DNA of 64,000 nucleotides from Escherichia phage vB_EcoM_DE16, in the sequence record OP595145.1. The stretch is one strand, 5' to 3'. Positions 6,158 through 31,884 of this stretch are shown here, in pieces. The notes below the pieces were generated by a model, which saw nothing but the letters and a program-made list of their open reading frames with translations, did no database searches and was not told the DNA's origin. A program made the position numbers and the translations under genes. Every line of letters starts with the position of its first letter. Position 1 is the stretch's first letter.

Positions 6158-7531
6158 ATGGCAACTTTTCGTGAAAAGGTAGCAACCGTAACTTTACTGT
6201 ATGGTGCTACATCAATTCGTGAAACCCAGTTCGATATTCCCCTGATCCTTACAGGTCAGAATGTAACTGGCGAAGCGATTCAATATTACTCTTCTTCCGA
6301 TGCACTTTTGGAAGCAGGTTATGGATTAAATGATCCAGCGTATATTATGGCAGTCAAACTGTTTAACGGTTTGTTCCCACCAGATCAAGTCATGGTTGGT
6401 AAGCGTGAAGTTACAAACTTTACTCTAACTCCAATCGTAGAAGATAGTGCAACTTACACAATTACCATCAAAAATGGTACCAAGAAAAAAGAATTTAAAT
6501 TCATTGCTGATGACACTGCAACTGCACAAGAGATTGTAGTTGGTCTGACTGAAATGATCAATGCAGATCTTGTTTATGGCCCACTGTTTACAGTAGCTAA
6601 CAACGGCGCTGCAATGACTTTCACTCCAGTAGAAGGTAAGTTTGGTTCTATTGACAGCACAGGTTTCACTCAAGAAACTGTCTATGCTAATGCTATTACG
6701 GAAGATATCGCTGCTCTGCATGATATTGATAGTAGCTGGTTCTGGACCCTTTCAGATTCCCATGAAACAGAAGATGTTCTAGCTTTGGCTGCATGGGTAG
6801 AAGAGAATGATAAAGTTTACTTCTTCTCTAGCTCTGAACCTGGAATTAAAACGAAAGCAGAAGATAACGTTCTGGAACGACTGAATGACCTCGGCTATAA
6901 TAACACTTGCTTTGCTTTGTGGATGACCGATGCAGATTCTGTATTCCCAGAAGCAGCAGTTGTTGGTGCAATCTGTTCTCGTCAACCTGGTTTAACTACT
7001 CTTCACGGTAAAACACTGGTAGGTGTAGAGATCGAGAAACTGGATCAGACTTCGGAAAACAATATTGTTCAACAGAACGGTAACATCTATCGTAAAGAGC
7101 ATGGAACTCTGTTCTATCGTGATGGATTGATGGTTAGCGGTTTCTTTGTTGACTATGTTGTTCATGCTTTGTGGTTTAAAGCTCGCACAGAAGAATCACT
7201 GTTTACACTGTTTAAACAACAGTCTATGCTGGGTGGTGGTGTTCGTGCTACTTCAAACGGTCTGGCTTTGATTCGACAAGCTGTTCTGGCTAACCCGATC
7301 CAAGTAGGTATCCTCAACGGTTCCATCGCTAATGAAGTTGTTACTTCTGAAGAGACTGGTTTGCGTGTCGATCTGAAACCTATTGTTTATATTCCTTCTC
7401 GTGCCGATATGACCGATGCGCAAATCAATGCTCGTCTGGTTGATGGGATGAAGATTGAATATGTTTACGCTGGCTTCTTCCATTACGTTAAAGTTCAGGT
7501 CAACGTCCTGACTAACCGTACTGCAAACTAA
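6158..7531 (+). CDS. tail sheath protein
   Basis: 457 aa; RBS AGGAG; immediately precedes a 159-aa tube-like gene; size and order typical of contractile tails. Confidence 0.65.
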   Translation: MATFREKVATVTLLYGATSIRETQFDIPLILTGQNVTGEAIQYYSSSDALLEAGYGLNDPAYIMAVKLFNGLFPPDQVMVGKREVTNFTLTPIVEDSATYTITIKNGTKKKEFKFIADDTATAQEIVVGLTEMINADLVYGPLFTVANNGAAMTFTPVEGKFGSIDSTGFTQETVYANAITEDIAALHDIDSSWFWTLSDSHETEDVLALAAWVEENDKVYFFSSSEPGIKTKAEDNVLERLNDLGYNNTCFALWMTDADSVFPEAAVVGAICSRQPGLTTLHGKTLVGVEIEKLDQTSENNIVQQNGNIYRKEHGTLFYRDGLMVSGFFVDYVVHALWFKARTEESLFTLFKQQSMLGGGVRATSNGLALIRQAVLANPIQVGILNGSIANEVVTSEETGLRVDLKPIVYIPSRADMTDAQINARLVDGMKIEYVYAGFFHYVKVQVNVLTNRTAN

Positions 7532-8871: not shown

Positions 8872-10860
8872 TTGTTAGAAATTAACGCCTCCAAAATTAG
8901 TAACGTGGTTACGTTTAAGGTGGACAAGAACAGTCTCAAGGAAGCAAAAGATGCCGTGTTGAGTGTTCAGAAGTTTGCAAATAAAATGCAACCCACTATG
9001 AACATGACCAAGTTTAGACAACAAATGAAAGAGATTGAGCGTGAACTTAAGAAAGCTCAAACTCAAAGTCAAAAACCTATGCGAGCACCTACTCCCGCTG
9101 GAGCGGGTGCTCCTGTAGGCGGATCTGGCAGACCTAGAACTCCTAAAACCCCGCAAGGAAGAGAAGAAGAAAAAGCTCGTAAAGCGGCTGAACGCGAAGC
9201 TAAAGCAGCAGCACGTAGGGAAGACTTAGGTAATCTTCGTTTGCAGAACTTTAACTACCGAGCAAGAGCATTCAGTAAAGCTAGTCCTGGTGCTATGCAA
9301 GAAGCTAGAGACGTTATGGGTAAAGCTGTAGAGCAATACAAAAAGGGTGAAATAACTCTTCAACGTATGAACCAAGCTCTTGCTCACCAGTTGGATGCTT
9401 TACGCAGATCTCATCGTGAAAAGAATGCTGAAATAGAAGACGAGGTTCGCGGTCGTCGCCGTATTCGTAGAGAGCTAGAAGCAGAAGCTAAAATGCGTAT
9501 ACGTATGCGAAATCGTGAACTTAGAGATATAGAACGCAACCGTAAGCGGGAATTAGCTCAACAAAAACGTGATCGTGATCGTAGATATGGACAATTAAAA
9601 GAAGGTGCAGCAGGTCTTAATCCACGCATGATTGCATCCTCTTTGATTGGTGCTGGGCTGTTTGCAGGTGGTTCTGTAGTTGGTAACACGTTGATGAATA
9701 CTAACGAAAGAATTAAACTTGTAAGCCGTGGTGCTGAAAACGTTCAGACAAACGCCAACGCTATTTTGGCAATGACAGCTTGGGGTGAACAGAACGGTGT
9801 AGACTCTGCAAATATTATTAAATCAATAGATAATATTAAAGACGTTCGTGAACGTCTTGGTAATACAGTTTTAGCTGCAAAGTGGAATGAGAAAGAAGGG
9901 AAGTGGAAAGGCGGTGATAATGGCATAACTGACATTATGAACCTGTTTGGATGGAATCCAGAACAGCTTAAACCTTTACAGAACGATCCTTTAGCTTTTA
10001 TTCAGGCTACTGTTAATGAAGGTGAGCGTCGAGGTATGAACTCTGCTCAAATAGGGCGACTTCTTGAAAACCTTGGTGATGACCTTATGCACTACCAACG
10101 CATGTTTAGTAAAAACGGCGAAGGGTATAATGAAGTATTGAAAATGCTTCAAAGAACAGGTGCAACATTAACTCAAGAACAAATAGATGCTTCTAAGGAG
10201 TTTACTCGTTTTGCTGCAACAGTTCAGCTTGTAGGTCAAGGTATGCAGAACCATTTCTTAGAGGGTTTTGTGAAAGCCTTACCTAAAGATGATTCTTGGT
10301 TGGATAACGTTAAAGTGCTAGATCAGTTCGCCAAAGATTTAGGTGAAGAACTTGGTAAAACAACAGTTCAACTTGGTGGTTTTGCTAAAGAATTAGGAGA
10401 TGGTTTCGGATCTTTTACCAATTGGCTTAAAGAAACATTCCCAGATACCTTCGGAGACAACACAGATCCTAATAAATCTTTGGCACAAAAAGCATACGAG
10501 GCAACGCAAAGTGGAGACAGCAATCCTGTAGCAGATTGGTTGTACAATTTAACAGGTATTGATACACAAGATATTGGTCGTATGTGGAGAGGAGAACAAA
10601 CAAGGACACGTGCTTTTGGATTTGGTAATCCTCTTGAAGATTTACGTGAATCAGCCTATACACCTAACGTAAGTTTGGCTCGTAATCAACCTGTTGTTGA
10701 GAATACGGTAGCAATACCAAGTGATCTTATCAAAGTTACGATCAGTCCTTCTTCCGAGTTTGGAAATATTCTTGATGCAAGAATTCAAAATAGCGGAAAT
10801 AGCATTTTCCAACGTTTGTCTCTTTCAACTCTAAGTGGACAATCTAACACTGGTGGTTAA
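8872..10860 (+). CDS. tail tape measure protein
   Basis: 662 aa, TTG start after RBS; long charged R/E/K helical region (RRIRRELEAEAKMRIRMRNRELRDIERNRKRE) and a glycine-rich hydrophobic segment; position after chaperone. Confidence 0.65.
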   Translation: MLEINASKISNVVTFKVDKNSLKEAKDAVLSVQKFANKMQPTMNMTKFRQQMKEIERELKKAQTQSQKPMRAPTPAGAGAPVGGSGRPRTPKTPQGREEEKARKAAEREAKAAARREDLGNLRLQNFNYRARAFSKASPGAMQEARDVMGKAVEQYKKGEITLQRMNQALAHQLDALRRSHREKNAEIEDEVRGRRRIRRELEAEAKMRIRMRNRELRDIERNRKRELAQQKRDRDRRYGQLKEGAAGLNPRMIASSLIGAGLFAGGSVVGNTLMNTNERIKLVSRGAENVQTNANAILAMTAWGEQNGVDSANIIKSIDNIKDVRERLGNTVLAAKWNEKEGKWKGGDNGITDIMNLFGWNPEQLKPLQNDPLAFIQATVNEGERRGMNSAQIGRLLENLGDDLMHYQRMFSKNGEGYNEVLKMLQRTGATLTQEQIDASKEFTRFAATVQLVGQGMQNHFLEGFVKALPKDDSWLDNVKVLDQFAKDLGEELGKTTVQLGGFAKELGDGFGSFTNWLKETFPDTFGDNTDPNKSLAQKAYEATQSGDSNPVADWLYNLTGIDTQDIGRMWRGEQTRTRAFGFGNPLEDLRESAYTPNVSLARNQPVVENTVAIPSDLIKVTISPSSEFGNILDARIQNSGNSIFQRLSLSTLSGQSNTGG

Positions 10861-14486: not shown

Positions 14487-14959
14487 TGGCAGATTTAACT
14501 ACGATCAAAATTTCTGATCTTACACAAACAACCTCTGTGTCTGATACAGATTTCTTTGTAACAGATCAGGCTGGAATAACAAAGAAAACTTCTTTGAAAG
14601 TGCTGTTGAGTGGTGCAGGGGTAACTAGAAACCGTCTGAATGCACGGGGAACAGTAACTAGCACCTTGGCATTAGATATTAGTTCGGCAGAATATTTTTC
14701 AGCAACTTTATCTTCTGCAACGTGCACAATTAGTTTTACTAATATTCCAGTAGCAACAAATGCAGTTTTAAACTTTACTTTAGCTTTGCGTCAAGGAAGT
14801 GGTGCAAATAAAGTCGTATGGCCTTCTTCTGTAAAATGGAGTTTTGGTCGTTCCCCAGTTTTGAGTTATCGTCAAGGTGCAACAGACACTTTTGAGTTTA
14901 TCAGTTATGATAATGGTGCAACTTGGACAGGTAGCTTAGTTTTAGCAGGAGTTATTTAA
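14486..14959 (+). CDS. hypothetical tail-associated protein
   Basis: 157 aa; ATGA overlap with upstream gene. Confidence 0.4.
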   Translation: MADLTTIKISDLTQTTSVSDTDFFVTDQAGITKKTSLKVLLSGAGVTRNRLNARGTVTSTLALDISSAEYFSATLSSATCTISFTNIPVATNAVLNFTLALRQGSGANKVVWPSSVKWSFGRSPVLSYRQGATDTFEFISYDNGATWTGSLVLAGVI

Positions 14960-17835
14960 TGTCAAGAGTTAAGCACAATATTGACAACACGTTTCAGTTG
15001 ATTGAAGGGTTGGTTCAGTTTTTGGAAAGAAATACTGGGCTTACCATAGATCCTACGGTTCAGCATTACATTATCAACCCACAAAACGTATTGGCGAACA
15101 ACAGACACTTTATTAACTGGACAGCGCAGGAAGGGCAACCAAACGGTGACGCTACTACCGAAGGTCAATCTGTGCTTATCACTGGTTTTGCCTATGCATA
15201 TTTGGCTACAGGGGATAAAAAATATCTTGAATCTGCCGAGAAGTACTGGCAAGCCTATATAGATCACTTCTTCGGGGGCCAACCTATTCCTGATCCTCCG
15301 GCTAAGTATCGTCCCAACTGGATCATCAATGGTAAAGAACCACGTTTAGCACATTACCCTCTCACAGATGATGGGTATCCTACGCACGGTGGGTTCAAAG
15401 GTAGCATGATGACTTGGATTAACGGAAGGACTGTTATTCCTAAAGGTGCACCGCATTGGGGGGAATACTTAGATAAAGCTTGGTTTGCTTTCAATGGCAA
15501 TCTTGGTTGGAACTCCGTTAACGCAACAGTTTATGCAACTAACCCAGATGGTTCAACTAACTGGAAAGAATATGGAGATCAGTGGGACGTTGAATGGATT
15601 ATAGATCGTCTAGGACGTAAAGTTGATTGGGATGGTAACATTTTATCTACAGGTCACAGCTTCGCAGAATATGGAACAGTGCAACTTAAAAATGCTTCTG
15701 TGAACGGTGATTATAAATTCAACTACGCTACATGCAACCCTGTAGAACACGGTGGATATCTGCTTAAGCGTAATGAGATGTGGCATAACCGTCCTGTAAA
15801 CGTTCCGGTAGAGTTAGGTTATCAAGATAATGCTTCCGATGCTGAAACGTGGTGGTGTGATGCAAACTACTTGATGTATCAGATCACAGGAGAGAGAAAA
15901 TACTGGCTTTGCTGGCAATCTTCTTTATTGTTGTGTCAAGACTACTCAAACATCGATATGTTTGATAAATTCTTCCGTAGATCTACGACAGCAATAATTC
16001 CTTTTACAGATGGTATCTCGTATGATTACTCATACCCATCTACAGCAATACCTAAATATTCTCGTGATGAATTAGGATACACAGTAATTCGCCAAGATGT
16101 TTCAGCACAAACAACTCTAGAACAACAGGCAGTTTGGTTCAGAGTGGATCAGAATTCAAAACTGCGTATTGAGTTTCAAGGTGTAGATGATGCAGGGGAA
16201 GGTGTTCTTTTCCGTCCAGAGCTAGAATTAAGCAAAACTAAGAGTGAAACAGACACAGTGACATATCGTTGTGGCTTACCTCTTGGTGCAGCTAATATGA
16301 CTAAGATGGATATACCTTTATCCAGTTTTATGCGCACCGAACCTCCTGGAGGTGGTGTATATATTATTGCTGAACCCAGAATTATTGTTGACTGGGGAAG
16401 CAATACTGTGATACAATATAAATATGCAACTGGTATTGCTGGGACAAATAGTGATCAGATAGTTTCTGCTAATATGGATTCAGATGGTGGTTTTACTGTT
16501 GGGTTTTGGTTAACACCAACTAAAACAGCCAATTTAAAATCTATTACATATCGTTCATACGCAGATGATTTTAACATCACTATTACGGATTCCGCAGGTT
16601 GGAGATGGTGGGCCATGTTAGAAAAAACAAATTCTGCATGGGTTACTAAAGCTTTAAGTCCTGCTGATTTCAAATTAAGCACTTGGCAACCCAATCATAA
16701 CGACACAGAGACAAAACCTTCGTCAATAAACCTGACTGCTGTTGATCAGATCAACATTGCATTGGATTCTGAACCTGCAAATGGCTTGACAGGGGCAATC
16801 GATTTTTATTGTGTTAACGATATCCCATCTTTGTATTCTTCAGCCGCTGGTGATGATTACACAATGTATTTCAGGGTTACAGTTTCATCTGAAAATCCTT
16901 ATACAGCAAAACTTGGAGATTGTACAATACTGGACTATAAACTTGACAGTTTGAATTATACTCCAGGAATCATTCCATTTTCCAATATTAGTGATCCTAA
17001 CACAGCATTATATGACGGTTGGCGTGGTATTCCTTACCCAGGCTATCAATACCCATCCTTATATTGTTTTAAAGGGAGAGATATTGACTGGGTTCGTATG
17101 AACAACAGTATAGACTTTTTATATGATTCACAAATGTGGTTTTATAATAAGTTTGCCCCTGTGATGCCTGGGCCAATGGCACAAGCTTATGTTTGGGATC
17201 GTTGGGATGCTCATAAATACGGAAACAAGAATGAGTTCACAATGTATCATTGGAACGATAAAGCTTGGGATGGTTATGAAGCACGAGCATTCTTCTGTGC
17301 GTGTCATACAGTATACGAACTGAAGCAACGAGGAGCAGAAGTTCCTGCAAAACTTTTAACAGTTTGTAAAAACTGGATCAATTATCTGAAGTGGTTCCAA
17401 GATAACAACGAAGGAAGAACACCAACAATATTTTATCCCAACGGAGAAGTGGCTGCGCCTGTAGATGACTTTACAAGTCACATGTCTGCGCTCTTTATGG
17501 CGGGATGTGCTATAATGGGGATGGCTGGATATGATTCAGAAATTCCTAACATTAAAATAGTAGCAGATCGCTGTTTTGAACTTATTCAGGAAAATTATAT
17601 TGTTCTTGGTCCTAATCACGTTATGAATGGTTGTTGGAGTGCTGCCCCTAGACCAGACAGTGATAACGGAGTCTTCTTTGGCTTCCACGCCGGAGAGTTG
17701 TTACGTGGTTTTGGGTTGTATGCCTTATACAAAAAACTTAATCCCCAAAATGCATTACCTGTTTTGGATTCGAGCAATATTCCTGCACTTACTGTTTTGA
17801 CAATGGCAAACATTAGTGTGGACGTTACCGAGTAA
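14959..17835 (+). CDS. large tail-associated protein, possible carbohydrate-active (W/Y-rich) domain
   Basis: 958 aa; aromatic-rich composition suggestive of a glycan-binding or hydrolase fold; no catalytic motif identified. Confidence 0.35.
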   Translation: MSRVKHNIDNTFQLIEGLVQFLERNTGLTIDPTVQHYIINPQNVLANNRHFINWTAQEGQPNGDATTEGQSVLITGFAYAYLATGDKKYLESAEKYWQAYIDHFFGGQPIPDPPAKYRPNWIINGKEPRLAHYPLTDDGYPTHGGFKGSMMTWINGRTVIPKGAPHWGEYLDKAWFAFNGNLGWNSVNATVYATNPDGSTNWKEYGDQWDVEWIIDRLGRKVDWDGNILSTGHSFAEYGTVQLKNASVNGDYKFNYATCNPVEHGGYLLKRNEMWHNRPVNVPVELGYQDNASDAETWWCDANYLMYQITGERKYWLCWQSSLLLCQDYSNIDMFDKFFRRSTTAIIPFTDGISYDYSYPSTAIPKYSRDELGYTVIRQDVSAQTTLEQQAVWFRVDQNSKLRIEFQGVDDAGEGVLFRPELELSKTKSETDTVTYRCGLPLGAANMTKMDIPLSSFMRTEPPGGGVYIIAEPRIIVDWGSNTVIQYKYATGIAGTNSDQIVSANMDSDGGFTVGFWLTPTKTANLKSITYRSYADDFNITITDSAGWRWWAMLEKTNSAWVTKALSPADFKLSTWQPNHNDTETKPSSINLTAVDQINIALDSEPANGLTGAIDFYCVNDIPSLYSSAAGDDYTMYFRVTVSSENPYTAKLGDCTILDYKLDSLNYTPGIIPFSNISDPNTALYDGWRGIPYPGYQYPSLYCFKGRDIDWVRMNNSIDFLYDSQMWFYNKFAPVMPGPMAQAYVWDRWDAHKYGNKNEFTMYHWNDKAWDGYEARAFFCACHTVYELKQRGAEVPAKLLTVCKNWINYLKWFQDNNEGRTPTIFYPNGEVAAPVDDFTSHMSALFMAGCAIMGMAGYDSEIPNIKIVADRCFELIQENYIVLGPNHVMNGCWSAAPRPDSDNGVFFGFHAGELLRGFGLYALYKKLNPQNALPVLDSSNIPALTVLTMANISVDVTE

Positions 17836-17843
17836 GGGGTAAA

Positions 17844-19997
17844 ATGAAACAAGCTATATTTACTGTCACGCGAGACAAGAGAGTAAATGCGAGTTCATTT
17901 AACTACACGACTGTTGATGGAACAGCAGTCGCTGGTAGAGATTATATTGCAAAATCGGGAACACTTGTGTTCCCTGATGATGCTGATTCTGCTACTATTG
18001 TGGTTGAAGTATTTGAACGACCAAAGAACTCAATAGATCTTAACTTCTCCCTCCAAGTTTCAGGGATTAGTCAAAATAATATGATGGTTGAAACAACCAT
18101 CAATTGTATTATAACTACTATCCAAGAAAATACCACTCCAATAACTTGGACTACAAAAGACGTTAAAATGTTCTCTCCTATGTATTGGACAATAGATTCT
18201 CAAGCAACGGAAAGTTGTTCTATTGTATCTCATGGAGACTCTTTTACTGCAAGATTTGTAAACAGAACAACAGCAGGTTTGGCAGGGGTTATCTGGAGCA
18301 CAGTTGACAAATATGACCATAAAGGTGTTGGGTATTTACCCCACACAGATTTAAGTTCAGAGAAACTTTGGTTTAAAATGGAAATTAGTCAAAACATGCC
18401 AGGTTTTAAAGAAGAACCTTTGGTGCCGACTTTGACTGTAACTCTCCTGGATAAAAGTGTTCATTATGTCAGTTTAGGATTCTATGCTTCAGATATTTCA
18501 GAAGATGGTAAAACAGCCACAATCAAGCTAGATTTTGGTAATATCTTTTCTGGCCCTAATAATGATATTCCTTTGGATATGAGTGCCGTAGACAATATTT
18601 TCTTCTCTTTGATTACAGCAAGGTATGAAGAAATAGAGGAGATTGTACCTATTGACAGTCAAGAGGCTTGGTTTACTTTCACTCTTCTTGAACCTACTTC
18701 TGGTTATAGTATGATGAAAGTCAGCAACCTTGTCCAGCCTGAACATGATATTCGCATGTGCACATCTTATGATGATATGTATAACCTGACTCCAGAGAGA
18801 GTTATTTATAATACATATGCACTAGGTTATCGTGGAATGATTAACCATTACAACGGAATGTCTCACTATTATGAGTTCTCATGGAACGGAACATCTTGGG
18901 CTTTAAATAGATCTGTTTTCCTGAATCCGGCTACAGAAGCTTGGCTTAACAGTTTCCATTCTATAGCTAATGAAAATGGCTACACAATAATGAACTCTTT
19001 GAGTTTTGAGTTGATGAGCACAGTTTGTCCTGTAGAATGGGTTCAACATGATTGGAACGATGCTCTTGCAGCAACAGGTTATAAGCCGCCTAGCTATGTG
19101 TTATCTCCAACAATTGATGAAGGTATGGAATATTTGCAAAATGTTATTAACAAAATAGCATCTATTTCTCAAGCTAACAATATTCCAATCGTTATTCAAA
19201 TTGGTGAACCTTGGTGGTGGTATAATACAGCAAGTAAAATGCCTTGTATATATGATTACACTACCAAACTGGCATTCAATACTGAAACAGGCTTATTTGC
19301 ACAAGATGCAGGAACTATAGATAATTATAAAACAGGAACACCATTTGACGAATACTATGCATTTTTGTCTCGTAAACTAGGGTTAAGAGTTACAAAGTTT
19401 GCAACAGACACCAGAGCAACTTATCCAGGAGCTAAAGTAACATTGCTTCCGTTCTTACCATCAATTATCGGCAACGGTTTGATGGAGAAAGTTAACTTTC
19501 CGTCTGATTACTACATTCCTGAAGCTTTTGATTTTTATTGTTCAGAGTGTTACGACTGGCTTCTGGAAGGTAAAATGATGAAAGCATTTGATGCAATTAC
19601 CATACCACATGAAAAATTAGGTTTTGAATATTCTGATATTCACTATCTTGCAGGTTTTGTTCCAGATGCTACTCTTGCACCTTTGTATGGCTTTGATCCT
19701 GAATCAAACTACCGCACGTATCTTTGGAAAATGATTATAGGTAATATAGTGTTGAACGCCAATAAGTTCAATGGACTTACACAATATATATGGGCCTATC
19801 CTCAAATAATGCACGATTCTATCACGGTAGTTAATTCTCAATCCCAAGTTTTCTATATGGGTAACGTGCCTTTGAACGCTTATTTACAGGATATCACTCT
19901 TAAACAGGTAAATGTTGAGATTGCCACCATAAGTGGAATTACATTAGCCACTAAATCTGGAGAAGATTTAGTAACAACACAAAAATTTTATATATAG
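17844..19997 (+). CDS. tail-associated protein with N-terminal Calx-beta domain
   Basis: 717 aa; N-terminus FNYTTVDGTAVAGRDYIAKSGTLVFPDDADSATIVVEV matches the Calx-beta signature. Confidence 0.55.
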   Translation: MKQAIFTVTRDKRVNASSFNYTTVDGTAVAGRDYIAKSGTLVFPDDADSATIVVEVFERPKNSIDLNFSLQVSGISQNNMMVETTINCIITTIQENTTPITWTTKDVKMFSPMYWTIDSQATESCSIVSHGDSFTARFVNRTTAGLAGVIWSTVDKYDHKGVGYLPHTDLSSEKLWFKMEISQNMPGFKEEPLVPTLTVTLLDKSVHYVSLGFYASDISEDGKTATIKLDFGNIFSGPNNDIPLDMSAVDNIFFSLITARYEEIEEIVPIDSQEAWFTFTLLEPTSGYSMMKVSNLVQPEHDIRMCTSYDDMYNLTPERVIYNTYALGYRGMINHYNGMSHYYEFSWNGTSWALNRSVFLNPATEAWLNSFHSIANENGYTIMNSLSFELMSTVCPVEWVQHDWNDALAATGYKPPSYVLSPTIDEGMEYLQNVINKIASISQANNIPIVIQIGEPWWWYNTASKMPCIYDYTTKLAFNTETGLFAQDAGTIDNYKTGTPFDEYYAFLSRKLGLRVTKFATDTRATYPGAKVTLLPFLPSIIGNGLMEKVNFPSDYYIPEAFDFYCSECYDWLLEGKMMKAFDAITIPHEKLGFEYSDIHYLAGFVPDATLAPLYGFDPESNYRTYLWKMIIGNIVLNANKFNGLTQYIWAYPQIMHDSITVVNSQSQVFYMGNVPLNAYLQDITLKQVNVEIATISGITLATKSGEDLVTTQKFYI

Positions 19998-20005
19998 GAG
20001 TAAAA

Positions 20006-21946
20006 ATGTCAACTACAATTACTAATTTACCCGAAACATCAAAAGTTAATGATTCTGATTACCTGGTTTTAGACCAACCTGATAAGACTGTTAAAAGCAC
20101 AGTTTCCAACTTTCTTACTGACACTGGGGTGGTTTTAGCCACCCAGTTGAAAGATACAGATGGAGCAGATTTAATACAATCCTCAAATGGTAATACTGTT
20201 CAGGAAGAGTTGAATAACAATCTTCTTAATGATCGTGAACAGTGGCGTCGTAGTCTTGCTGAGGCTGGCTTAACGCTTGTTGATGGTAGTTTTGAAGACG
20301 GTGCTACAGCAAATAGTAAAACTGATGCCGTTTGGTATAGGACAGGAGGTCAGTGTTATGTGTGGGATGGTGTCGGGGTTAAAAATGTACCTGCTAAATC
20401 AACTCCAACATCAACTGGCGGGGAAGGGGTTGATAAGTGGCTTAATGTTAGTAATGTTACACTTAGGAGTGGGATAGTAGCCTCTATAAATCCAGTAGAT
20501 AATCTAAGCGCACTTAAATCGTCCCTTGCATCAAAGAAGATAACCACATTAACTGAGGCTGTAACCACTACGGATGTAATTATTGTTCCTTCCTACAGTG
20601 AGTTAAGAGGCATTGGTCATAATATAGGAATCATTGCACAACAACCGAAGCCGCAAAAAGTAATATCAAAATCTGGAAATAAAAAATATGATTTTGTTAA
20701 TACAAATAAACCACTTCAGTCGAGAGATGCAATATTAGCTATAGATCCTGCGTGGATTGACGGAGTATACCCCCAACATACAATAATCGATGGGGTATCC
20801 TTACTTGGTGATCCATCCAGTAAAAATGATGTCGGGCTATTTATTTTTCAGGGTGGAAATTTCACCATCAGGAACATGCAGATAGCGAACTGCCTAGACG
20901 GGATTCTTAGCAGTGGCTGCTGGATTAGTCGCTTTGAGAACGTGAGTGCGCTTGGTGGCAGTCTGGCTTTTAATGGTGGCACAAGCCATGTATTAATTGG
21001 GTGCGCTGCCTGGGCTACCGCTGAGAATGACGGAGCATTTTATTTTAATGACGTAACATACAGCAGCATGGTTGGATGCACATCTGACCACTCGGAAGCT
21101 CCAGCTAACTTCTTCAGAGATGGCGTGCAGATGACCATGGTTAACTGCGGAAGCGAGTTCGCTACCTCACCGGGAGGTGGTGTTGGTAGCATGATTGCGT
21201 CAGCAGGTGCGGGCAATAAAATCACGGTACTTGGATATAAAGGGGTTCCAAAGGCTGGGCAGACTGACCCGCTAATTAGTATTTCAGAAAACAGTACGAT
21301 GCACATTATCAATTGGTACAGCAATGAGCCAGACTATCCGAATAGTTTAGACGTCAGTGTAAATGGTGACGGAAGCACTATTATTGTTGAAGATAGTATA
21401 TTCTCTGGAGGCCGAACCCTGCCGGTTGTACAGTTCAGGGGCAACCAACCGAACAGTAAAGTTATTGTTAAGAGCGGCGGTAATGAATATGTATATACCT
21501 CACCTCTGGGGGGTGGTATTGTAAGTTCACCAGAACGTAAGTACAGAGGTACAACGTATACACCGAAGCTACTGGTTAATGGCGCGAATGTTGCCGAGCT
21601 AACATATTCCACTGCTATAGGTAGTGCAGTAAAGAATGGTAATCAACTAACAGTAAACTTTAATTTAGTTATATCAGCCGCTCCTTCATCCCCATCTCAG
21701 GGTACTATTACACTGGATTTACTTTCTACTGAGACGGGGTACGTTCCTGAATATGAATCGTGTGGTGTGCTAGTAGTTTCTAATGGTGTGGGTTTCAGTG
21801 GGGTGGCATGCGTAGTGTCGCCCAATGAGACTATGGTTTATTTAAAAAGCAGTGATGGGGTAAATATGCAACTACAGCATATAAAGGCAGGAACGCAAAT
21901 CAGAGGAGCGGTGACATTTAAAGTAAAAAGATCTGGTTGGTCATGA
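20006..21946 (+). CDS. tailspike / tail fiber with parallel beta-helix-like region (possible depolymerase)
   Basis: 646 aa; RBS AGGAG; central region rich in G/N/S/T/V with repetitive short beta-strand pattern. Confidence 0.45.
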   Translation: MSTTITNLPETSKVNDSDYLVLDQPDKTVKSTVSNFLTDTGVVLATQLKDTDGADLIQSSNGNTVQEELNNNLLNDREQWRRSLAEAGLTLVDGSFEDGATANSKTDAVWYRTGGQCYVWDGVGVKNVPAKSTPTSTGGEGVDKWLNVSNVTLRSGIVASINPVDNLSALKSSLASKKITTLTEAVTTTDVIIVPSYSELRGIGHNIGIIAQQPKPQKVISKSGNKKYDFVNTNKPLQSRDAILAIDPAWIDGVYPQHTIIDGVSLLGDPSSKNDVGLFIFQGGNFTIRNMQIANCLDGILSSGCWISRFENVSALGGSLAFNGGTSHVLIGCAAWATAENDGAFYFNDVTYSSMVGCTSDHSEAPANFFRDGVQMTMVNCGSEFATSPGGGVGSMIASAGAGNKITVLGYKGVPKAGQTDPLISISENSTMHIINWYSNEPDYPNSLDVSVNGDGSTIIVEDSIFSGGRTLPVVQFRGNQPNSKVIVKSGGNEYVYTSPLGGGIVSSPERKYRGTTYTPKLLVNGANVAELTYSTAIGSAVKNGNQLTVNFNLVISAAPSSPSQGTITLDLLSTETGYVPEYESCGVLVVSNGVGFSGVACVVSPNETMVYLKSSDGVNMQLQHIKAGTQIRGAVTFKVKRSGWS

Positions 21947-22660: not shown

Positions 22661-24147
22661 TGGACGAATATGGTTTGACAGATGCGGGATTTGTAATCCC
22701 GACTTTTGACGATGTTCTAAACAATTATATGACAGCAGTAAAAAACACATTTGGTGCAGATGCAGCCACTTCGGAAGATACTGTGATCGGACAACTGTTT
22801 AGAATAATTGCATACACAGATTACACATTGTGGGAAGGTATGCAAGGTGTTTATAATACTCAAACACTGGATGGTGCAGAAGGTATTTATCTTGACGAAA
22901 TCTTTTCTAAGCGCGGTTTCTATCGAGCAGGGGCAGCAGCAAGTACAGGTTATGCCTATGTTAAGAGTAATAACAAAGCAGCTTGGACTTATGAGTTAGG
23001 CACGGATATTTACTTCAACTCTGATAGTGATATGAACTACTATGTTAGCACACCAACTATGTTGAATGCTAAGATTGCAGCTTATCAAATCTCTCGTGCT
23101 AATGCAACTGCTACAGGTGTTCCAAATATTACTTTTTATGCACAAAGTGCGGTGGATGGAGGACTAAACAGTAAAACACTTGCACCTGGTTCTTCTACAT
23201 TTATAACCGATCTTGAAACTTTTATCAAGGCGAATTTAACAGAAGCTGATCGTAGTCTTGTATTTTCTGATTCAGGTAACTTATCAATTGGTTTTACTTC
23301 TTTAACCAGTGATACTCCAGTGGGGCTGGTAACTCCTATTAAATTTTATGCTAGTGTTCCGGTTGGAACCAAGTGGAGTGAGATTCCGGTAGTTGCAGCA
23401 GAGAAAGGATACAATCCTGTTGGTGTGGAGTCTATTACAGGGATATCTTCTACCTTTACAGGTTATCTTGATAGTGGTAACTTCTATTCATTTTCCCCTG
23501 GTCGAGATGTTGAGACAGACGCAGAATTCCGCTCTCGTTTCAATGACAACGTTGACGAAGCTAACGCAGGGACACGAGCAGCTATTGTGAAAGCTCTGCT
23601 ACTTACAGATGGTGTTACTAAGGTGAAGATTTATGATAACCCTACATTACATGATCAAGAACATGCTCCAGCTATGACTTTCCAGACTATAGTTTATGGT
23701 GGCAGTGCAGAAGAAATTGCAAATGTTATCTATAAAACCAAACCAATCAACACTTTGACACACGGAACAACTAACATAACAGTTACAACAGAAGATGGAG
23801 GACAAGAAATTATCCGCTTCTCTCCTGGTACTTCTGCTATGTATTCCGTAAAACTTGTTTATCAAACTGTCAACGGAACAACTTTAAGTGGAACAGAAAA
23901 ACAAAACATCGTAGAAGCTTTACAAAACCTGCAAGCTTACTTTGAGTTAGGTTCTTCAGTAACGAACGATCAAATCAAAGGTGTTATTTATGCAGCACTT
24001 GCTTTTGGACGCTTGACTTCTCTTCGTGTTTATGTTAAACTTAATACTGAGGATGACAGTAAATATACAGAGAATAATATAGTTCCTGCTTATAATGTTG
24101 TCCCTTCTTTTGACCTTGATAACATTTCTTACGAGTATGGAGTGTAA
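22660..24147 (+). CDS. baseplate wedge protein (gpJ / gp6-like)
   Basis: 495 aa; N-terminal region follows the Baseplate_J pattern (TLDGAEGIYLDEIFSKRGFYRAGAAASTGYAYV); precedes gpI-like and fiber genes as in P2. Confidence 0.55.
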   Translation: MDEYGLTDAGFVIPTFDDVLNNYMTAVKNTFGADAATSEDTVIGQLFRIIAYTDYTLWEGMQGVYNTQTLDGAEGIYLDEIFSKRGFYRAGAAASTGYAYVKSNNKAAWTYELGTDIYFNSDSDMNYYVSTPTMLNAKIAAYQISRANATATGVPNITFYAQSAVDGGLNSKTLAPGSSTFITDLETFIKANLTEADRSLVFSDSGNLSIGFTSLTSDTPVGLVTPIKFYASVPVGTKWSEIPVVAAEKGYNPVGVESITGISSTFTGYLDSGNFYSFSPGRDVETDAEFRSRFNDNVDEANAGTRAAIVKALLLTDGVTKVKIYDNPTLHDQEHAPAMTFQTIVYGGSAEEIANVIYKTKPINTLTHGTTNITVTTEDGGQEIIRFSPGTSAMYSVKLVYQTVNGTTLSGTEKQNIVEALQNLQAYFELGSSVTNDQIKGVIYAALAFGRLTSLRVYVKLNTEDDSKYTENNIVPAYNVVPSFDLDNISYEYGV

Positions 24148-26744: not shown

Positions 26745-29700
26745 ATGGCAACATTCCCAACATATCCAGCAACGTCTCTCGAACAGGGCGTAGACCTGGT
26801 TATTTTCTCATCTAACCAACTCCATGATGTTATTAATGGAAGTGCTACAGAGAGTATTGAAACAGAATCAGGGTTGATACCAACCCTGAGAAAAGCCCTT
26901 GTTGACAACTTTTTCTTTAAAAGCCCATTGGATTGGGCGCAAGGCACAAACGAAACAGTTTTTAACCAACTTCGTTATTTCCAGAATGGAGTATTGAGCG
27001 GTTATTACTATGCCCCTAACGCTACATTGGTTAACCCAATCCCTATGCAAGGGACTCCAGTAGGAGATAACAACTGGGTATTGTGGGGACTGAAAACAGA
27101 ACAATTAGCAACAGAAGTCACCCCGTGGGTATACTCTGGTGCAACGGGTTATGAAACAGTAATTAGTCCTCCTTACATCTTTGATAGTGCTATTGTTACG
27201 ATCAATGGTGTTATTCAGGTTCTGGGGGAAGCTTTCCGTATAGAAGATAGTAAGATCATCTTATCTGAACCTTTGGGACACGATCCTGCAACAGGACTAC
27301 CAAACAAGCTTTTTGCTTATATTGGTAAAATCGTAGCTTCAGCAGATACAGATCCTAATCTAGAGAACCGTCTTGTTAGTTTAGAAACAAAAACGGAAGA
27401 ACTAACAGAAAGCATGGATAAAGTCCCTCTGCAAACTATTGCTCGTAAATATGGTTTGTTAGATGATGAGGTGGCTTACGCAACAGCAGGTCAATCGTTA
27501 ACAGGGATTAAAGCTCTGTATGATCCAGTAGCACAGTCTTCCTACACATTACCTCCTAACATCACAGGAACTTTAACATCCTTGTCTGTTTCTGGAGTAA
27601 TGACTTATTCTGGGGGGTCTGTAGATCTTTCTGCACTAGCTGTTGAACGTGGACAGTTTGTTCATTTGCCTACAAGCTTTGGTAATAACGTAACTCTGAC
27701 AGCTAAAAATCAGACGATTGGACGTGGTGCTGGTCGTTATCGTTGGGCTGGAAGTTTACCAAAAAGTATTTTGGCTTCTGATACATTGGAGACAAGCGGT
27801 GGATTAGGTCCAAATGCATGGGTTCTGACCAATACAGAAGGACTGTTAACCCCTCGTGGTGGAACATACAACGATTTATTCGATGTTGTCTACTTGTCAG
27901 AATTTGCTAACAACACAACAACATATACCACACCAGAAGCAGCTTTCCAAGCGGCACTGTTAGCAGCAAAAGCTTCGAAAAGCAAGATTCTCGATGCTTA
28001 CGGTTGCGATATGACTTTCACGACAAGCTCTTTTGATATTCAAGGTATCACTTTGCGTGGGGGTGTGTTCCGTGGTCAACGCGACTATCGTGTGCAAAAT
28101 GCTACAGTAGAAGGCACAACTTTCCGTAACTCTCGTGTTATGTATTGGGGTGGTGCTGTGCGCATGTTCGATTGTTTGTGGGACGGTGCTCCTCGCGCAG
28201 GTCAAGTTGGTAGCTTGGTATTCCAAGGCAACCCAATATCAGGTACTTTTGAAATTGATAATTGTACTTTTAAAAACGGGTTATACGGCATCCTTCAACA
28301 AGGAACAGGGGAACCAGTAACACGTGGTGTCTTCCGTAACCTTACCTTCATGGACATGCAAGGTGATGCAATAGAACTGAACGTCATCAATAAACATTAT
28401 GACGATGGTTGTGTGATTGAGAATATTTACCTGTCTAATATCGATGGAACTAATGCTCCTATTCCTCTGTCCAACTGGGGTATCGGTATTGGTGTAGCTG
28501 GTAAAGGACCATATGGTTACGGAATCCCTGATGATCAATATTGTAAGAATATTACAATTCGTAACGTTTTTGCAAAACGTTGCCGTCAGATTGTCCACGT
28601 AGAAGTTGGTCGTAATATCTCTATCGAAAACATTCATGGCGATCCAGACCAGACTGTATCTGTTGGGACAGGTTTGGCAACTGGCGCAGTTGTAATGTAT
28701 GGAAGTAAAGATTTTACGATTGATGGTGTTTATGGAGAGCCTAAAACAGACGGTAGCACACTTGCAAGTAATATCCGTATGATTTATTTGGAGTGGGGAA
28801 CTAACGCAGTTCTGGACGAAGAGGGTAATCCGGTAGTTCCGGCACAGGGCAGACCTTCAAATCCATGCTTTAACTATTCTGTTCGTAACATTCACACCAA
28901 AACTGGGCGTGTTTTTGCGGGAGTTTCCGCTGGGCCAGGTTATGAAAACAGAGTTAGCTTTGAAAATATTCGTTGCGCTGCATTGCAGTTGTTCGGTATA
29001 GCTTCTTGGCTTTCAATGTCTAACATCACCTGTAATATCTTCGATTGTGTTGGTCAACCTGAATCTGGTCCAGGGACATTTTATGATGGATTCTTCCGTA
29101 GAGAAAAATCTGTTCTTGAAATGGTTAACGTAAACTGTTACCCAGATGGCAAGACGATGGTTACTGGTCGTCCACAGTGGAGCCGTTGCCGTTACTCGGA
29201 TATTCATCGTGTCAACTGTAATGTTGAAGCTAATATGTATACCAATATCGCAGGTGGTATTGGAGCTATTGTAGGGACAACGGGCAAAGTTTATTACTTA
29301 GAGCCTAATCCTAGTCGAAACATTGATGGAATGCATTTCCCAACAGGGAAAGAGTTTGACAAAGGGGATATGATAGTCAAGGCGGATAATACGTTCTTCC
29401 TTGTAACAACAAGTGGGGCATATATTCCAGATATCCCAGCTTTCGGTATTCGAGCTACACAGGCAGGAGATACCTTCCTGACACAGAACTTGACTCCTAA
29501 CGGGACAGCAACAAATGCTTCTTGGTTGTATCATTACCCTCTGTCAGCAGGGACACGTATCCGTATTCCTGGTGCTGGTGTAGGTGGAGCAGATTTGGAC
29601 ACAGTTATTACTCGTGCACCTTATCAAGATAATGATACGTGGACTAACCCAGTTAAAATAGACATTGCAGATCCAATTGTAACGCCTACAAGTGCTGGAG

Positions 29701-29798
29701 TTAGAATTAAAACCATACCTAATGATTCCAGTAATGTTTCTGTAGGTAATACTGCGGTTATTCGCCCAACGCCAGTAGTAGATGTGCCAACAACCTAA
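26745..29798 (+). CDS. large tailspike with beta-helix-like domain (possible polysaccharide depolymerase)
   Basis: 1017 aa; central region shows beta-helix-like repeats (NITIRNVFAKRCRQIVHVEVGRNISIENIHG); contains the module shared with the 22113 ORF. Confidence 0.5.
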   Translation: MATFPTYPATSLEQGVDLVIFSSNQLHDVINGSATESIETESGLIPTLRKALVDNFFFKSPLDWAQGTNETVFNQLRYFQNGVLSGYYYAPNATLVNPIPMQGTPVGDNNWVLWGLKTEQLATEVTPWVYSGATGYETVISPPYIFDSAIVTINGVIQVLGEAFRIEDSKIILSEPLGHDPATGLPNKLFAYIGKIVASADTDPNLENRLVSLETKTEELTESMDKVPLQTIARKYGLLDDEVAYATAGQSLTGIKALYDPVAQSSYTLPPNITGTLTSLSVSGVMTYSGGSVDLSALAVERGQFVHLPTSFGNNVTLTAKNQTIGRGAGRYRWAGSLPKSILASDTLETSGGLGPNAWVLTNTEGLLTPRGGTYNDLFDVVYLSEFANNTTTYTTPEAAFQAALLAAKASKSKILDAYGCDMTFTTSSFDIQGITLRGGVFRGQRDYRVQNATVEGTTFRNSRVMYWGGAVRMFDCLWDGAPRAGQVGSLVFQGNPISGTFEIDNCTFKNGLYGILQQGTGEPVTRGVFRNLTFMDMQGDAIELNVINKHYDDGCVIENIYLSNIDGTNAPIPLSNWGIGIGVAGKGPYGYGIPDDQYCKNITIRNVFAKRCRQIVHVEVGRNISIENIHGDPDQTVSVGTGLATGAVVMYGSKDFTIDGVYGEPKTDGSTLASNIRMIYLEWGTNAVLDEEGNPVVPAQGRPSNPCFNYSVRNIHTKTGRVFAGVSAGPGYENRVSFENIRCAALQLFGIASWLSMSNITCNIFDCVGQPESGPGTFYDGFFRREKSVLEMVNVNCYPDGKTMVTGRPQWSRCRYSDIHRVNCNVEANMYTNIAGGIGAIVGTTGKVYYLEPNPSRNIDGMHFPTGKEFDKGDMIVKADNTFFLVTTSGAYIPDIPAFGIRATQAGDTFLTQNLTPNGTATNASWLYHYPLSAGTRIRIPGAGVGGADLDTVITRAPYQDNDTWTNPVKIDIADPIVTPTSAGVRIKTIPNDSSNVSVGNTAVIRPTPVVDVPTT

Positions 29799-29859: not shown

Positions 29860-31884
29860 ATGAATTTAACAAGACCTAATAGTGCGATAGCCGATCTGGT
29901 AGAAGCTACTTATCGAAAACGTCGCAGCTTTGAGGCAGGTTTTACATTACGTAATTCCCGTGAAGTTTTGCTGTTAGCAGCAGAAGGGAATTATTACCAA
30001 TGGAAAGGAACTTTTCCTAAAGTTGTTCCAGCAAACTCTACGCCAGCCACCACAGGTGGTATTTCTTCCCTTGCATGGCAAAGTGTTGGGACCGCTGATG
30101 ATATAGCAATTATCAATGCCAAGTTTACAGCAATGCAGCAACAGATTGATGATCTGTCGGAAACAATACCTGAAGCTGGTAAATCGGCTTATCAGATCGC
30201 ACTTGATAATGGTTTTGTTGGAACAGAAGCACAATGGCTTGCTTCTTTGAAAGGGGATACTGGTGCTCAACTTAATATTAAAGGATCATTAGCAAGCACT
30301 AGTGAACTACCATCCACAGGTAACGTTGCAGGGGATGGTTATATCGTAGGTGATGTAATCTACGCTTGGGATGGTTCTGTTTGGAAACTTATTTCTTCTC
30401 TTGGGCCAGAAGGTAAATCAGCTTACGAGGTATGGTTGGCAGATGGTAATACAGGATCTGTTTATGATTTTCTTACCTCTATAAAAGGTGATAAAGGTGA
30501 TGTTGGTCCTACAGGGCCACAGGGAGCACCTGGTGTTAACGCCAACGGTTTTGATTATCGTGGGGATTTGCCTTCTACAAGTAACTTACCACAACCTAAC
30601 TCTGAAAACGTAAGCCAAGCTTATTCTATCAATGGTAATCTTTATGTCTCTAATGGGACAGCTTGGGTCAACATGGGTAATATTGTTGGTCCTCAAGGTC
30701 CACAAGGTGAGGCAGGTAAAGACGGTCTTGATGGAACAGATGGAGATGAAGGGAAATCTGCATATCAAAGTTGGCTGGATGCTGGTAATGAAGGGACAGA
30801 AGTAGATTTTATTGCCTCACTTAAAGGTCCAAAAGGAGACAAGGGTGATCAAGGAGAGCGAGGTCCACAAGGTGAACTAGGTCCACAAGGACCAGTGGGT
30901 GCAACAGGATCAGGTTTAGAGATTATCGGGGTTCTGAACAGTGAAGCTGAACTTCCTCCTACTGGAGAAGTAGGTGATGCATATAAAATTAATAATGATT
31001 TGTATGTTTGGATTCAAGATGCTACGGAATGGATGAATGTTGGCAGTCTTGGAGGAACATCAATTACAGCTAAAGGTCATGTTCCGAACAGTGAAGCTCT
31101 CCCTGTTTATAATAACTATGGTGATGCCTATTTAACTGAAGACACTAGTAATCTTTACATCTATACCTACGATCAAGACACCAATTCCGCATCTTTTGTT
31201 GACATGGGAAGTATTAAAGGCGACAAAGGTGAAAAAGGGGATAAAGGAGATAAGGGTGATCCTGGAACAAACGGAACCAACGGTACTGATGGGACCAACG
31301 GTAAGGACGGCGCACAGTGGTTTGTAGCAACAACTAATCCAGTTGCAGGAGACGGTGTTATCAATGATTACGCTTTCAACACTACCACTGGAGCAGTGTT
31401 TAAGAAAACAGATTCTTCTACATGGACACTTATAGGAACTCTTCCTAGTATACCAGAAGCACCTCAAGACGGCTTGACGTATGGTCGTTCTGATGGGAAC
31501 TGGATCGAAATATCAGGATCAGATCCTACAGAAGCTATAACACCAACTAAAGTTACAGCAGGTTTCATGGAACTTGAAACAACTACTGCCAACTCTGGAG
31601 CATCTTGGACTCCTTCTGGAACTTCCAATATGTATGTTGTTACAGTAACTGACGCTCTGACAGTTGGAGCATGGCCTGGTGTCACTGGCTCTACAAAGCC
31701 TAAAGCGTTTTCAGCAATGATTTATTTGATTCAAGATACAACGGGACACACGGTTACACTAGATGCGTCTTATGGAGCACTGAATGATACAGAAATAGCA
31801 ACTACTGCTAACGCAGTAACAATTTTGCAATTAACGTATCCTGGTGTGGGTGATATCGTGGACATGGTTGTTGTAACACGATAA
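29860..31884 (+). CDS. tail fiber protein with collagen-like Gly-X-Y repeats and phage tail-fibre repeats
   Basis: 674 aa; G-X-Y runs (KGDKGDQGERGPQGELGPQGPVGATG; KGDKGEKGDKGDKGDPGTNGTNGTDGTNGKDG) and three GKSAY...WL..GN.G...DF..S.KG repeats. Confidence 0.65.
   Translation: MNLTRPNSAIADLVEATYRKRRSFEAGFTLRNSREVLLLAAEGNYYQWKGTFPKVVPANSTPATTGGISSLAWQSVGTADDIAIINAKFTAMQQQIDDLSETIPEAGKSAYQIALDNGFVGTEAQWLASLKGDTGAQLNIKGSLASTSELPSTGNVAGDGYIVGDVIYAWDGSVWKLISSLGPEGKSAYEVWLADGNTGSVYDFLTSIKGDKGDVGPTGPQGAPGVNANGFDYRGDLPSTSNLPQPNSENVSQAYSINGNLYVSNGTAWVNMGNIVGPQGPQGEAGKDGLDGTDGDEGKSAYQSWLDAGNEGTEVDFIASLKGPKGDKGDQGERGPQGELGPQGPVGATGSGLEIIGVLNSEAELPPTGEVGDAYKINNDLYVWIQDATEWMNVGSLGGTSITAKGHVPNSEALPVYNNYGDAYLTEDTSNLYIYTYDQDTNSASFVDMGSIKGDKGEKGDKGDKGDPGTNGTNGTDGTNGKDGAQWFVATTNPVAGDGVINDYAFNTTTGAVFKKTDSSTWTLIGTLPSIPEAPQDGLTYGRSDGNWIEISGSDPTEAITPTKVTAGFMELETTTANSGASWTPSGTSNMYVVTVTDALTVGAWPGVTGSTKPKAFSAMIYLIQDTTGHTVTLDASYGALNDTEIATTANAVTILQLTYPGVGDIVDMVVVTR
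30470..31320 (+). repeat. coding collagen-like (G-X-Y)n segments inside the tail fiber gene
   Basis: Four separate Gly-X-Y blocks in the translated sequence; boundaries approximate. Confidence 0.6.

Follow-up and report, generated by a model that had tools for sequence, protein, structure and literature searches.

The N4 glycan receptor (NGR) is needed by the podovirus N4, by the Vequintavirinae and by phi92-like phages (PMC8669472; PMC8594841), and in the latter two groups genetic work has established the dependence of infection on nfrA, nfrB, and wecB, the genes of NGR synthesis (bioRxiv 10.64898/2026.04.02.716166; PMC8669472). In N4, gp65 is the receptor-binding protein; in myoviruses, the NGR protein has been assigned to the gp142 family, which is marked by a conserved GMSHY motif and in which the published NGR determinant maps to a TIM barrel (bioRxiv 10.64898/2026.04.02.716166). 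A 2026 electron cryo-microscopy study of phi92 mentions neither gp141 nor gp142, and leaves fiber II and the arm of fiber I unassigned (PMC13450770). The locus analyzed here lies in a stretch of 64,000 nucleotides (nt) from Escherichia phage vB_EcoM_DE16 (record OP595145.1), referred to below in its full length as the window, and encodes a 717-amino acid (aa) ortholog of phi92 gp142 and rV5 gp34 that begins with a Calx-beta domain devoid of strand A. The reading we favor, at a probability of roughly 0.55, is that gp142-type proteins are baseplate-attached NGR receptor-binding proteins whose Ca2+-independent, strand-A-less Calx-beta domain docks on the C-terminal tail of gp141, the product of the gene immediately upstream.

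In the proposed arrangement, the N-terminal domain (N-domain) of the 717-aa protein would supply strands B to G only and act as a Ca2+-independent docking module, the missing strand A being putatively encoded at the extreme C-terminus of the upstream gene, in the gp141 tail ...LTVLTMANISVDVTE. This tail would insert into the open edge of the gp142 beta-sandwich, completing it as strand A, and a Calx-beta domain split in this manner over two polypeptides would hook the glycan-binding module onto gp141. The wedge protein gp35, whose gene lies ahead of the Calx-beta gene in rV5-like phages, carries the equivalent tail there. We infer both the physical strand complementation and the virion position of gp142 from the genomic evidence presented below.

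The identity of the N-domain as Calx-beta, put forward in an initial annotation made from the sequence alone, lies far beyond chance. The Pfam search that this annotation had named as a check matches PF03160 to residues 4-82 of the whole protein with an E-value of 8.1e-11 and 42.4 bits, well over the curated gathering cut-off of 27 bits, and residues 1-100 scanned alone score 47.5 bits; the signature string it had singled out, DGTAVAGRDYIAKSGTLVFPDDADSATIVVEV, spans residues 25-56 (nt 17916-18011) and lies inside this match. A phmmer search with residues 1-105 against 1.84 billion representatives yields 12,821 proteins at E<=0.001; the 150 matches listed are without exception long proteins aligned over 7 to 42 separate stretches each, typically at 30-40% identity, which points to tandem Calx-beta repeats. 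Against the PDB, phmmer matches the N-domain to the calcium-binding domains of NCX1 and CALX, and to the Calx-beta domain of integrin beta-4. Structure prediction, another check named at the outset, likewise returns a Calx-beta fold. The AlphaFold2 (AF2) model of isolated residues 1-105 is of low confidence (predicted local distance difference test, pLDDT, of 65) and was used only for fold search, where the best 32 Foldseek matches in the PDB are all Calx-beta domains (template modeling, TM, scores of 0.54-0.63). The domain name is already on record, both in precomputed Pfam tables and in GenBank entry PV191315 ('Calx-beta domain protein', in a 97.5%-identical phage), and the domain is nowhere discussed in the literature searched on phage-tail Calx-beta, Phapecoctavirus receptor-binding proteins and phi92 gp142.

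What the chain does not contain is strand A. The Pfam alignment, which covers profile positions 24-104, opens at position 24 of 119 when only residue 4 of the protein has been reached; the N-domain in the full-length AF2 model has six strands (residues 3-9, 17-25, 38-43, 49-56, 66-73, and 85-90), with block-mean pLDDT of 83-93 for residues 1-90; and an in-frame stop at 17814-17816 leaves no room for a longer N-terminus of the open reading frame (ORF). Strand A is hence absent from the 717-aa chain, and a complete seven-strand (A-G) Calx-beta domain is not found within this single protein.

The sequence that precedes the Calx-beta gene changes place together with it. Relatives of the C-terminal 300 aa of gp141 are found in 536 phage records, 122 of which carry the C-terminal extension; a gp142-type Calx-beta domain (>=60% identity) is likewise present in 122 records, a comparison of totals and not of record-by-record sets, and the extension and the Calx-beta gene are directly adjacent in every record compared. 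In the Stephanstirmvirinae, the Calx-beta gene follows gp141, and the wedge protein gp146, the homolog of gp35, has no tail. In Vequintavirus, the gene follows gp35, and it is the gp141 homolog that ends 29 residues earlier. The gp141 homolog of Seunavirus also lacks the 29-residue extension and is followed by a different gene; no Calx-beta gene was found in this genus by tblastn with the N-domain, which listed no Cronobacter record and, among the matches listed, no Seunavirus phage. In Certrevirus, gp35 is tail-less and leads directly into the short fiber gene, with no Calx-beta gene after gp35. The tail thus co-occurs and co-relocates with the Calx-beta gene across several phage lineages, and for every gp142/gp34-type gene checked the upstream neighbor ends in a strand-A-like sequence (Table 1). 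Between the window and phi92, the 30 codons of the tail show 14 synonymous and 6 nonsynonymous changes, indicating that the gp141 tail is under purifying selection. The PDB contains no homolog of gp141, and no entry with gp141 or a phage Calx-beta domain. A fusion of gp141 and gp142 by read-through or frameshifting was considered and rejected: the two genes are separated by 8 nt and lie in different frames in the window, overlap by 1 nt in rV5, and stand 12 nt apart in frame in 18-1-2. Since the frame relation differs by lineage and a Shine-Dalgarno-like run precedes the ATG, no conserved fusion is indicated.

The resemblance of these tails to the missing strand can be quantified. Bacterial Calx-beta repeats open with strand A, about ten residues before strand B, and a strand-A profile of 13 positions (consensus PTLSISDVTVTEG) was built solely from 790 such repeats, taken from the phmmer matches. 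The best 14-mer of each tail was scored, with 14,603 14-mers from 38 window proteins as the null. Tails other than that of rV5 reach 6.6-12.4 bits, in the top 0-0.08% of the null, and tail-less homologs stay at or below 2.0 bits (<=2.0). In a second test, the C-terminal 20 residues of the upstream protein were joined to the N-domain and the chimera scanned with Pfam: the gp141 tail moves the start of the alignment from profile position 24 to 14 and the rV5 tail brings it to position 11, and control tails leave the start unextended. The locus therefore combines an acceptor without an edge strand and a co-occurring, matching donor, the pairing by which the donor-strand class is recognized, with the rV5 tail excepted by its score.

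Table 1. C-terminal tails and their best scores on the strand-A profile.
Protein	C-terminal sequence	Score (bits)	Null windows at least as high
Window gp141	...PALTVLTMANISVDVTE stop	6.8	9
phi92 gp141	...LTMNDISVDVTK stop	8.9	1
Metagenomic gp141-like	...PTLTVLTASDVTVDVTKE stop	10.9	0
18-1-2 gp35	...IYVDNISVDATE stop	6.6	11
Metagenomic gp35-like	...PTLVKVSVLDTTVNFS stop	7.5	2
rV5 gp35	...IYCESITVNATRQEG stop	see text	see text
Henunavirus gp35-GH5 fusion, tail sequence	...VSVEDITVDASE-IPPVGIIISISDAVLTE...		
Henunavirus tail 1		9.9	0
Henunavirus tail 2		12.4	0
117-aa Calx-beta protein	...VISISDAVLTTV stop	12.2	0

Several observations weigh against the docking reading. The full-length AF2 model builds the six-stranded N-domain with confidence in the absence of strand A, which suggests that this strand may be dispensable, and the tail could have a different mode of binding to gp142. 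The rV5 gp35 tail is weak, at 2.6 bits, with 715 null windows (5%) scoring at least as high. On a full-domain custom profile, adding the gp141 tail to the N-domain points the same way as the strand-A scores but only modestly, with 80.7 compared to a null of 77.4 +/- 1.35 (rank 189 of 14,375, top 1.3%); with that profile, an increase of 3.6 bits was also seen for a chimera carrying the gp145 C-terminus, chosen as a control. The Pfam score gains of the chimeras amount to only 0.3 to 6 bits (1 bit for the gp141 tail and 6 bits for that of rV5), a direction that is supportive and not decisive. No donor strand was found beside the GH48-type and PEp14-type Calx-beta genes, where only the first strands of the immunoglobulin (Ig)-like domains of the GH5 protein itself matched. 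Lastly, NGR use has been published for Vequintavirus and Justusliebigvirus, with no Phapecoctavirus report found in the literature searched, and we infer NGR use by the Phapecoctavirus protein from orthology.

The same scans returned some further matches in the window. The wedge protein gp145 ends in ...SFDLDNISYEYGV (24109-24147), which may be a second, weaker strand-A-like tail or a product of chance. The strand-A profile also ranks high PVVRVTDYQVVDGD, at residues ~131-150 of a 371-aa head-region protein of unknown function (998-2113), and AFIQATVNEGE, at residues ~366-385 of the tape measure protein (8872-10860), is among the best strand-A windows as well. The latter two are probably unrelated beta-strand motifs, and they illustrate the limits of a 13-position profile.

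Beyond the gp142 group, the Calx-beta domain appears as a portable N-terminal module. Phage copies open at profile positions 24-39 (mostly 24-25, and 35 in one) a few residues after Met1, and the truncated domain heads at least four unrelated phage tail proteins, always at their extreme N-terminus. It is joined to GH48 in an 805-aa protein of N4-like Erwinia podoviruses such as Kuerle and in an 806-aa protein of Henunavirus, a genus of Erwinia myoviruses; it also opens a ~960-aa tail protein found in PEp14 and SopranoGao, and matches a 1170-aa protein of Pseudomonas phage Skulduggery from residue 1, a placement made by tblastn alone and not by Pfam. A stand-alone Calx-beta gene of 117 aa takes the slot of rV5 gp34 in Henunavirus, and a comparison of two phages, with 49 synonymous and 19 nonsynonymous codon differences, indicates that it is maintained by purifying selection. 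Such modularity, together with the N-terminal position, fits a role of the Calx-beta domain in particle attachment. A more tentative extension, for which we would put the odds slightly short of even, envisages a portable plug-and-socket in which the last ~15 residues of an anchor protein would provide strand A and the first ~90 residues of the receptor-binding protein strands B-G, the cassette being re-hung on other baseplate proteins together with the tail. The anchors would be gp35 in rV5-like phages, gp141 in phi92-/phAPEC8-like phages and a gp35-GH5 fusion in Erwinia phages, and the strand-A-less domain may carry other enzymes (GH48) in podoviruses and myoviruses.

Henunavirus and the N4-like Erwinia podoviruses have in common a two-gene cassette that encodes an Ig-like + GH5 cellulase protein followed by the Calx-beta + GH48 protein (51% and 56% identity), as seen in the loci of pEp_SNUABM_01 (L005:1323-6339), Hena1 (L007), and Kuerle (L003:4802-9418). 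In Henunavirus, the GH5 part forms an in-frame fusion with the wedge protein gp35, which over 226 aa is 55% identical to its rV5 counterpart, and the gene encoding only the 117-aa Calx-beta domain then follows. The motif ISISDAVLT, the best strand-A profile match anywhere in the loci examined, is present both at the gp35/GH5 junction (L005:2022-2048) and at the C-terminus of the 117-aa protein (L005:6298-6324); its codons differ between the two places, which points to conservation as protein and not to a recent DNA duplication.

The initial annotation had cast the N-domain as a Ca2+-binding module that, in the manner of the exchanger domains, could make adsorption or particle attachment Ca2+-dependent. 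This view has in its favor the true homology to Calx-beta, with the Ca2+-binding CBD1 domains as nearest solved relatives, the retention of the DGTA motif (D25), and the alignment of E58 with NCX1 D446, but the rest of the putative site makes it improbable. In both HMMER and MAFFT alignments, where the E454K variant fixes the NCX1 numbering, residues D446, D447, D448, E451, and E454 of NCX1, which coordinate Ca2+ in CBD1 (structures 2DPK, 3GIN, and 3US9), align with E58, R59, P60, S63, and L66 of the 717-aa protein, leaving E58 as the sole acidic residue at an aligned coordinating position. Across seven aligned phage Calx-beta domains (window, phi92, rV5, 18-1-2, two GH48 proteins, and the 117-aa protein), acidic character is not conserved at any calcium-site column, and the only invariant residues are T23, A28, G39, and F68. 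Nor does the acidic cluster of CBD1, which is made up of the E-F loop and the C-terminal end of the domain, reappear at the latter: nothing in the N-domain clearly corresponds to the C-terminal DDD of CBD1. In CBD1, the loop between strands A and B supplies another Ca2+ ligand, and this loop is not in the 717-aa chain. Furthermore, the integrin beta-4 Calx-beta domain (PDB 3FQ4 and 3H6A) sets a precedent for the fold without Ca2+ binding. With the acidic cluster mostly replaced and its columns unconserved in phage homologs, NCX-type Ca2+ binding by the N-domain is unlikely, and a different, weaker Ca2+ site may still be present. Of the Ca2+-dependent docking to the particle suggested at the outset, it is therefore the docking that survives, through the portable N-terminal domain, its stand-alone gene and the co-moving upstream tail, and the Ca2+ dependence that finds no support. 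The calcium connotation of the domain name is misleading here, and the domain looks instead like half of a two-gene docking device.

Two further explanations dispense with docking on gp141, and both are less well supported than the docking reading. The N-domain could be an accessory or spacer of an enzyme-like body, comparable to a carbohydrate-binding module, that helps hold NGR or another glycan and does not anchor the protein to the virion. The fusion of Calx-beta to glycan-acting domains (the NCTSP TIM barrel and GH48) would agree with such a role, as would the movement of the GH48 Calx-beta domain with its cargo between podovirus and myovirus (56% identity end to end), the finding of GH48 proteins without an adjacent donor strand, and the predicted template modeling score (pTM) of 0.88 for the full-length model, which suggests rigid packing of Calx-beta on the body. 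It is nonetheless an unlikely account, since the domain always occupies the extreme N-terminus, the usual site of particle-binding domains in phage receptor-binding proteins, and also starts tail proteins without a recognizable enzyme domain or stands alone as the conserved 117-aa gene; moreover, the published NGR determinant lies in the TIM barrel, and the co-relocating upstream tail would be left unexplained. That tail is accommodated if the N-domain is an Ig-like spacer that is passive and lacks a specific partner and the tail is merely carried along in cassette recombination. The cassette-like movement of the gene, after gp35 in the Vequintavirinae and after gp141 in the Stephanstirmvirinae, is evident, and the support of the strand-A profile is only moderate for some tails. 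A passive passenger would, on the other hand, hardly be kept as protein (NISVDVTE vs. NISVDATE) between lineages with no more than 35-38% identity in their Calx-beta domains, nor show the predominance of synonymous changes noted above, and seven of the eight phage tails scored resemble a canonical strand A far above chance, making this second explanation, if anything, a shade less likely than the first.

The docking reading would place at the baseplate a body with known relatives. The 717-aa protein has three Pfam domains (Calx-beta, NCTSP_N, and TIM-barrel_NCTSP), and its full-length AF2 model reaches a pLDDT of 91.3. Both NCTSP families score above cut-off, and the structure is similar to that of N4 gp64, which places the protein in the NCTSP family; a sheath around a non-contractile podovirus tail, which the protein does not form part of, defines the name of the family and not homology. 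The initial annotation, correct on the Calx-beta part, had missed that most of the protein is a glycan-recognition module akin to N4 gp64/gp65, with receptor genetics already published. Orthology and the GMSHY motif, in which G338 and S340 are invariant among 34 homologs, assign the protein to the gp142 group. No Calx-beta match was seen inside N4 gp64/gp65, the N-domain aligning in the phmmer search of the PDB only to NCX/CALX and integrin chains, and the alignments to gp64/gp65 falling in other parts of the query. Elsewhere, NCTSP bodies occur in Acinetobacter prophage copies without an extra domain, in copies with a C-terminal DUF2460, in one copy apparently set between matched stretches of a baseplate-hub attachment domain (C-terminal stretch at residues 701-779), and in others that carry chitobiase-type modules. 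The 688-aa relatives span only 95% of the 717-aa query and may lack its C-terminal 24 residues.

Table 2. Features of the gp141-gp142 locus in window coordinates.
Feature	Position	Strand	Basis
958-aa tail protein, ortholog of phi92 gp141, proposed docking partner	14959..17835	+	phrog_2871
C-terminal 30-residue gp141 extension, PQNALPVLDSSNIPALTVLTMANISVDVTE, proposed strand A donor	17743..17832	+	comparative; strand-A profile
8-nt spacer after gp141 stop, GGGG Shine-Dalgarno-like run before ATG	17836..17843	+	sequence read
717-aa tail protein gene, ortholog of phi92 gp142 and rV5 gp34 (ORF34)	17844..19997	+	ORF; DNA and protein identity; gene order
Calx-beta domain without strand A, residues 1-95	17844..18128	+	Pfam match residues 4-82 (nt 17853-18089); AF2; Foldseek
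Loop between strands E and F, FERPKNSIDLNF, residues 57-68	18012..18047	+	aligned to NCX1 CBD1 cluster IDDDIFEEDENF (HMMER, MAFFT)
NCTSP_N beta-sandwich, residues 107-292	18162..18719	+	Pfam PF23844, E 3.6e-16; matches N-terminal region of N4 gp65
TIM barrel of N4 gp64/gp65 type, possibly glycoside-hydrolase-like (GH153, PgaB C-terminal type), residues 299-658	18738..19817	+	Pfam PF23845 (TIM-barrel_NCTSP), E 1.1e-78
GMSHY motif, residues 338-342	18855..18869	+	read in sequence; published marker of NGR binding
C-terminal 24 residues without confident structure	19923..19994	+	pLDDT <50 at residues 694-717

The genomic context (Table 2) agrees with this assignment. The source is a phAPEC8-like myovirus (Phapecoctavirus, Stephanstirmvirinae), and the ORF, which starts with ATG and encodes 717 aa as first annotated, is 97-98.5% identical at the DNA level in 52 phage records (Phapecoctavirus genomes). 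A 719-aa relative, which has the length of phi92 gp142, is 77% identical overall to the 717-aa protein, and the N-domain is 71.6% identical to that of phi92 gp142; the gene order is common to the window and phi92, and there is also a metagenomic relative with identical gene order. The surrounding genes encode sheath, tape measure, hub, spike, wedge, short fiber, and several tailspikes, the 717-aa gene being placed between the baseplate and the tail-fiber genes, a position that, together with the orthology to phi92 gp142, bears out the earlier description of its product as tail-associated. In GenBank, near-identical genes are labeled 'non-contractile tail sheath', 'capsid and scaffold', 'capsid protein', 'tail assembly protein', 'putative tail fiber protein', and 'Calx-beta domain protein'; the first of these labels is misleading for the 717-aa gene, since the window encodes a true contractile sheath (6158-7531).

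Three other window proteins (20006-21946, 26745-29798, and 29860-31884) have a Tail_spike_N domain (PF18668), as in the branched tailspike complexes of CBA120 and G7C: one of 646 aa occupies the slot of the phi92 endosialidase gp143, one of 1017 aa is colanidase-like (phrog_6117), and one of 674 aa has collagen repeats. About 20 records labeled 'Campylobacter phage' (MG0656xx), as well as 'Acinetobacter phage vB_AbaM_ABPW7' and 'Klebsiella phage ZCKP1', contain genes 97-100% identical to those of rV5-, phi92-, or phAPEC8-like phages of E. coli, and their host labels look doubtful.

If correct, the docking reading would place gp142 on gp141 in baseplates of the phi92/phAPEC8 type, thereby locating the NGR-binding protein, and a split Ig-like domain would join the means already known by which phage fibers are attached. 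It would also give a simple guide for exchanging receptor-binding modules among therapeutic phages of broad host range, namely that the gene be moved along with the last 15-30 codons of its upstream neighbor. The analysis corrects a tempting calcium story and offers a concrete and cheaply testable prediction for the architecture and engineering of adsorption devices. The literature searched seems to contain no description of a domain split in this way, with a tail that relocates together with it.

Among described systems, the closest are phi92 gp142 and rV5 gp34 ('lateral tail fiber with sugar deacetylase domain', NGR-binding), which have the same succession of Calx-beta, NCTSP_N and TIM barrel and the same GMSHY motif, and from which the window copy differs as the Phapecoctavirus allele. 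The 'non-contractile tail sheath' proteins gp64 and gp65 of N4 (PDB 9LC0 and 9YF4) have homologous NCTSP_N and TIM-barrel modules, but N4 is a podovirus whose gp64-gp65 heterodimers sheathe the tail, whereas the window has a real contractile sheath. With CBD1 and CBD2 of NCX1 and with Drosophila CALX, the N-domain shares fold and family, as reflected in the Foldseek TM scores, 25-29% identity, and the DGTA.AG.DY signature; the phage domain differs from them in its missing strand A, in the replacement of most of the acidic Ca2+ cluster, and in a context that is extracellular and viral. In integrin beta-4 (PDB 3FQ4), the fold likewise serves structural or interaction purposes and has no canonical Ca2+ sites, but it is a complete seven-stranded domain, with no split, inside a large cytoplasmic tail. 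In chaperone-usher pili, an incomplete Ig-like sandwich is completed by a strand of another subunit, and in the branched tailspikes of CBA120 and G7C a conserved N-terminal adaptor plugs exchangeable receptor-binding proteins onto a baseplate scaffold. The proposed docking of gp142 on gp141 would resemble both by analogy only, with no sequence relation to either; the donor is an N-terminal extension in the pili and would be a C-terminal tail in the phage proposal.

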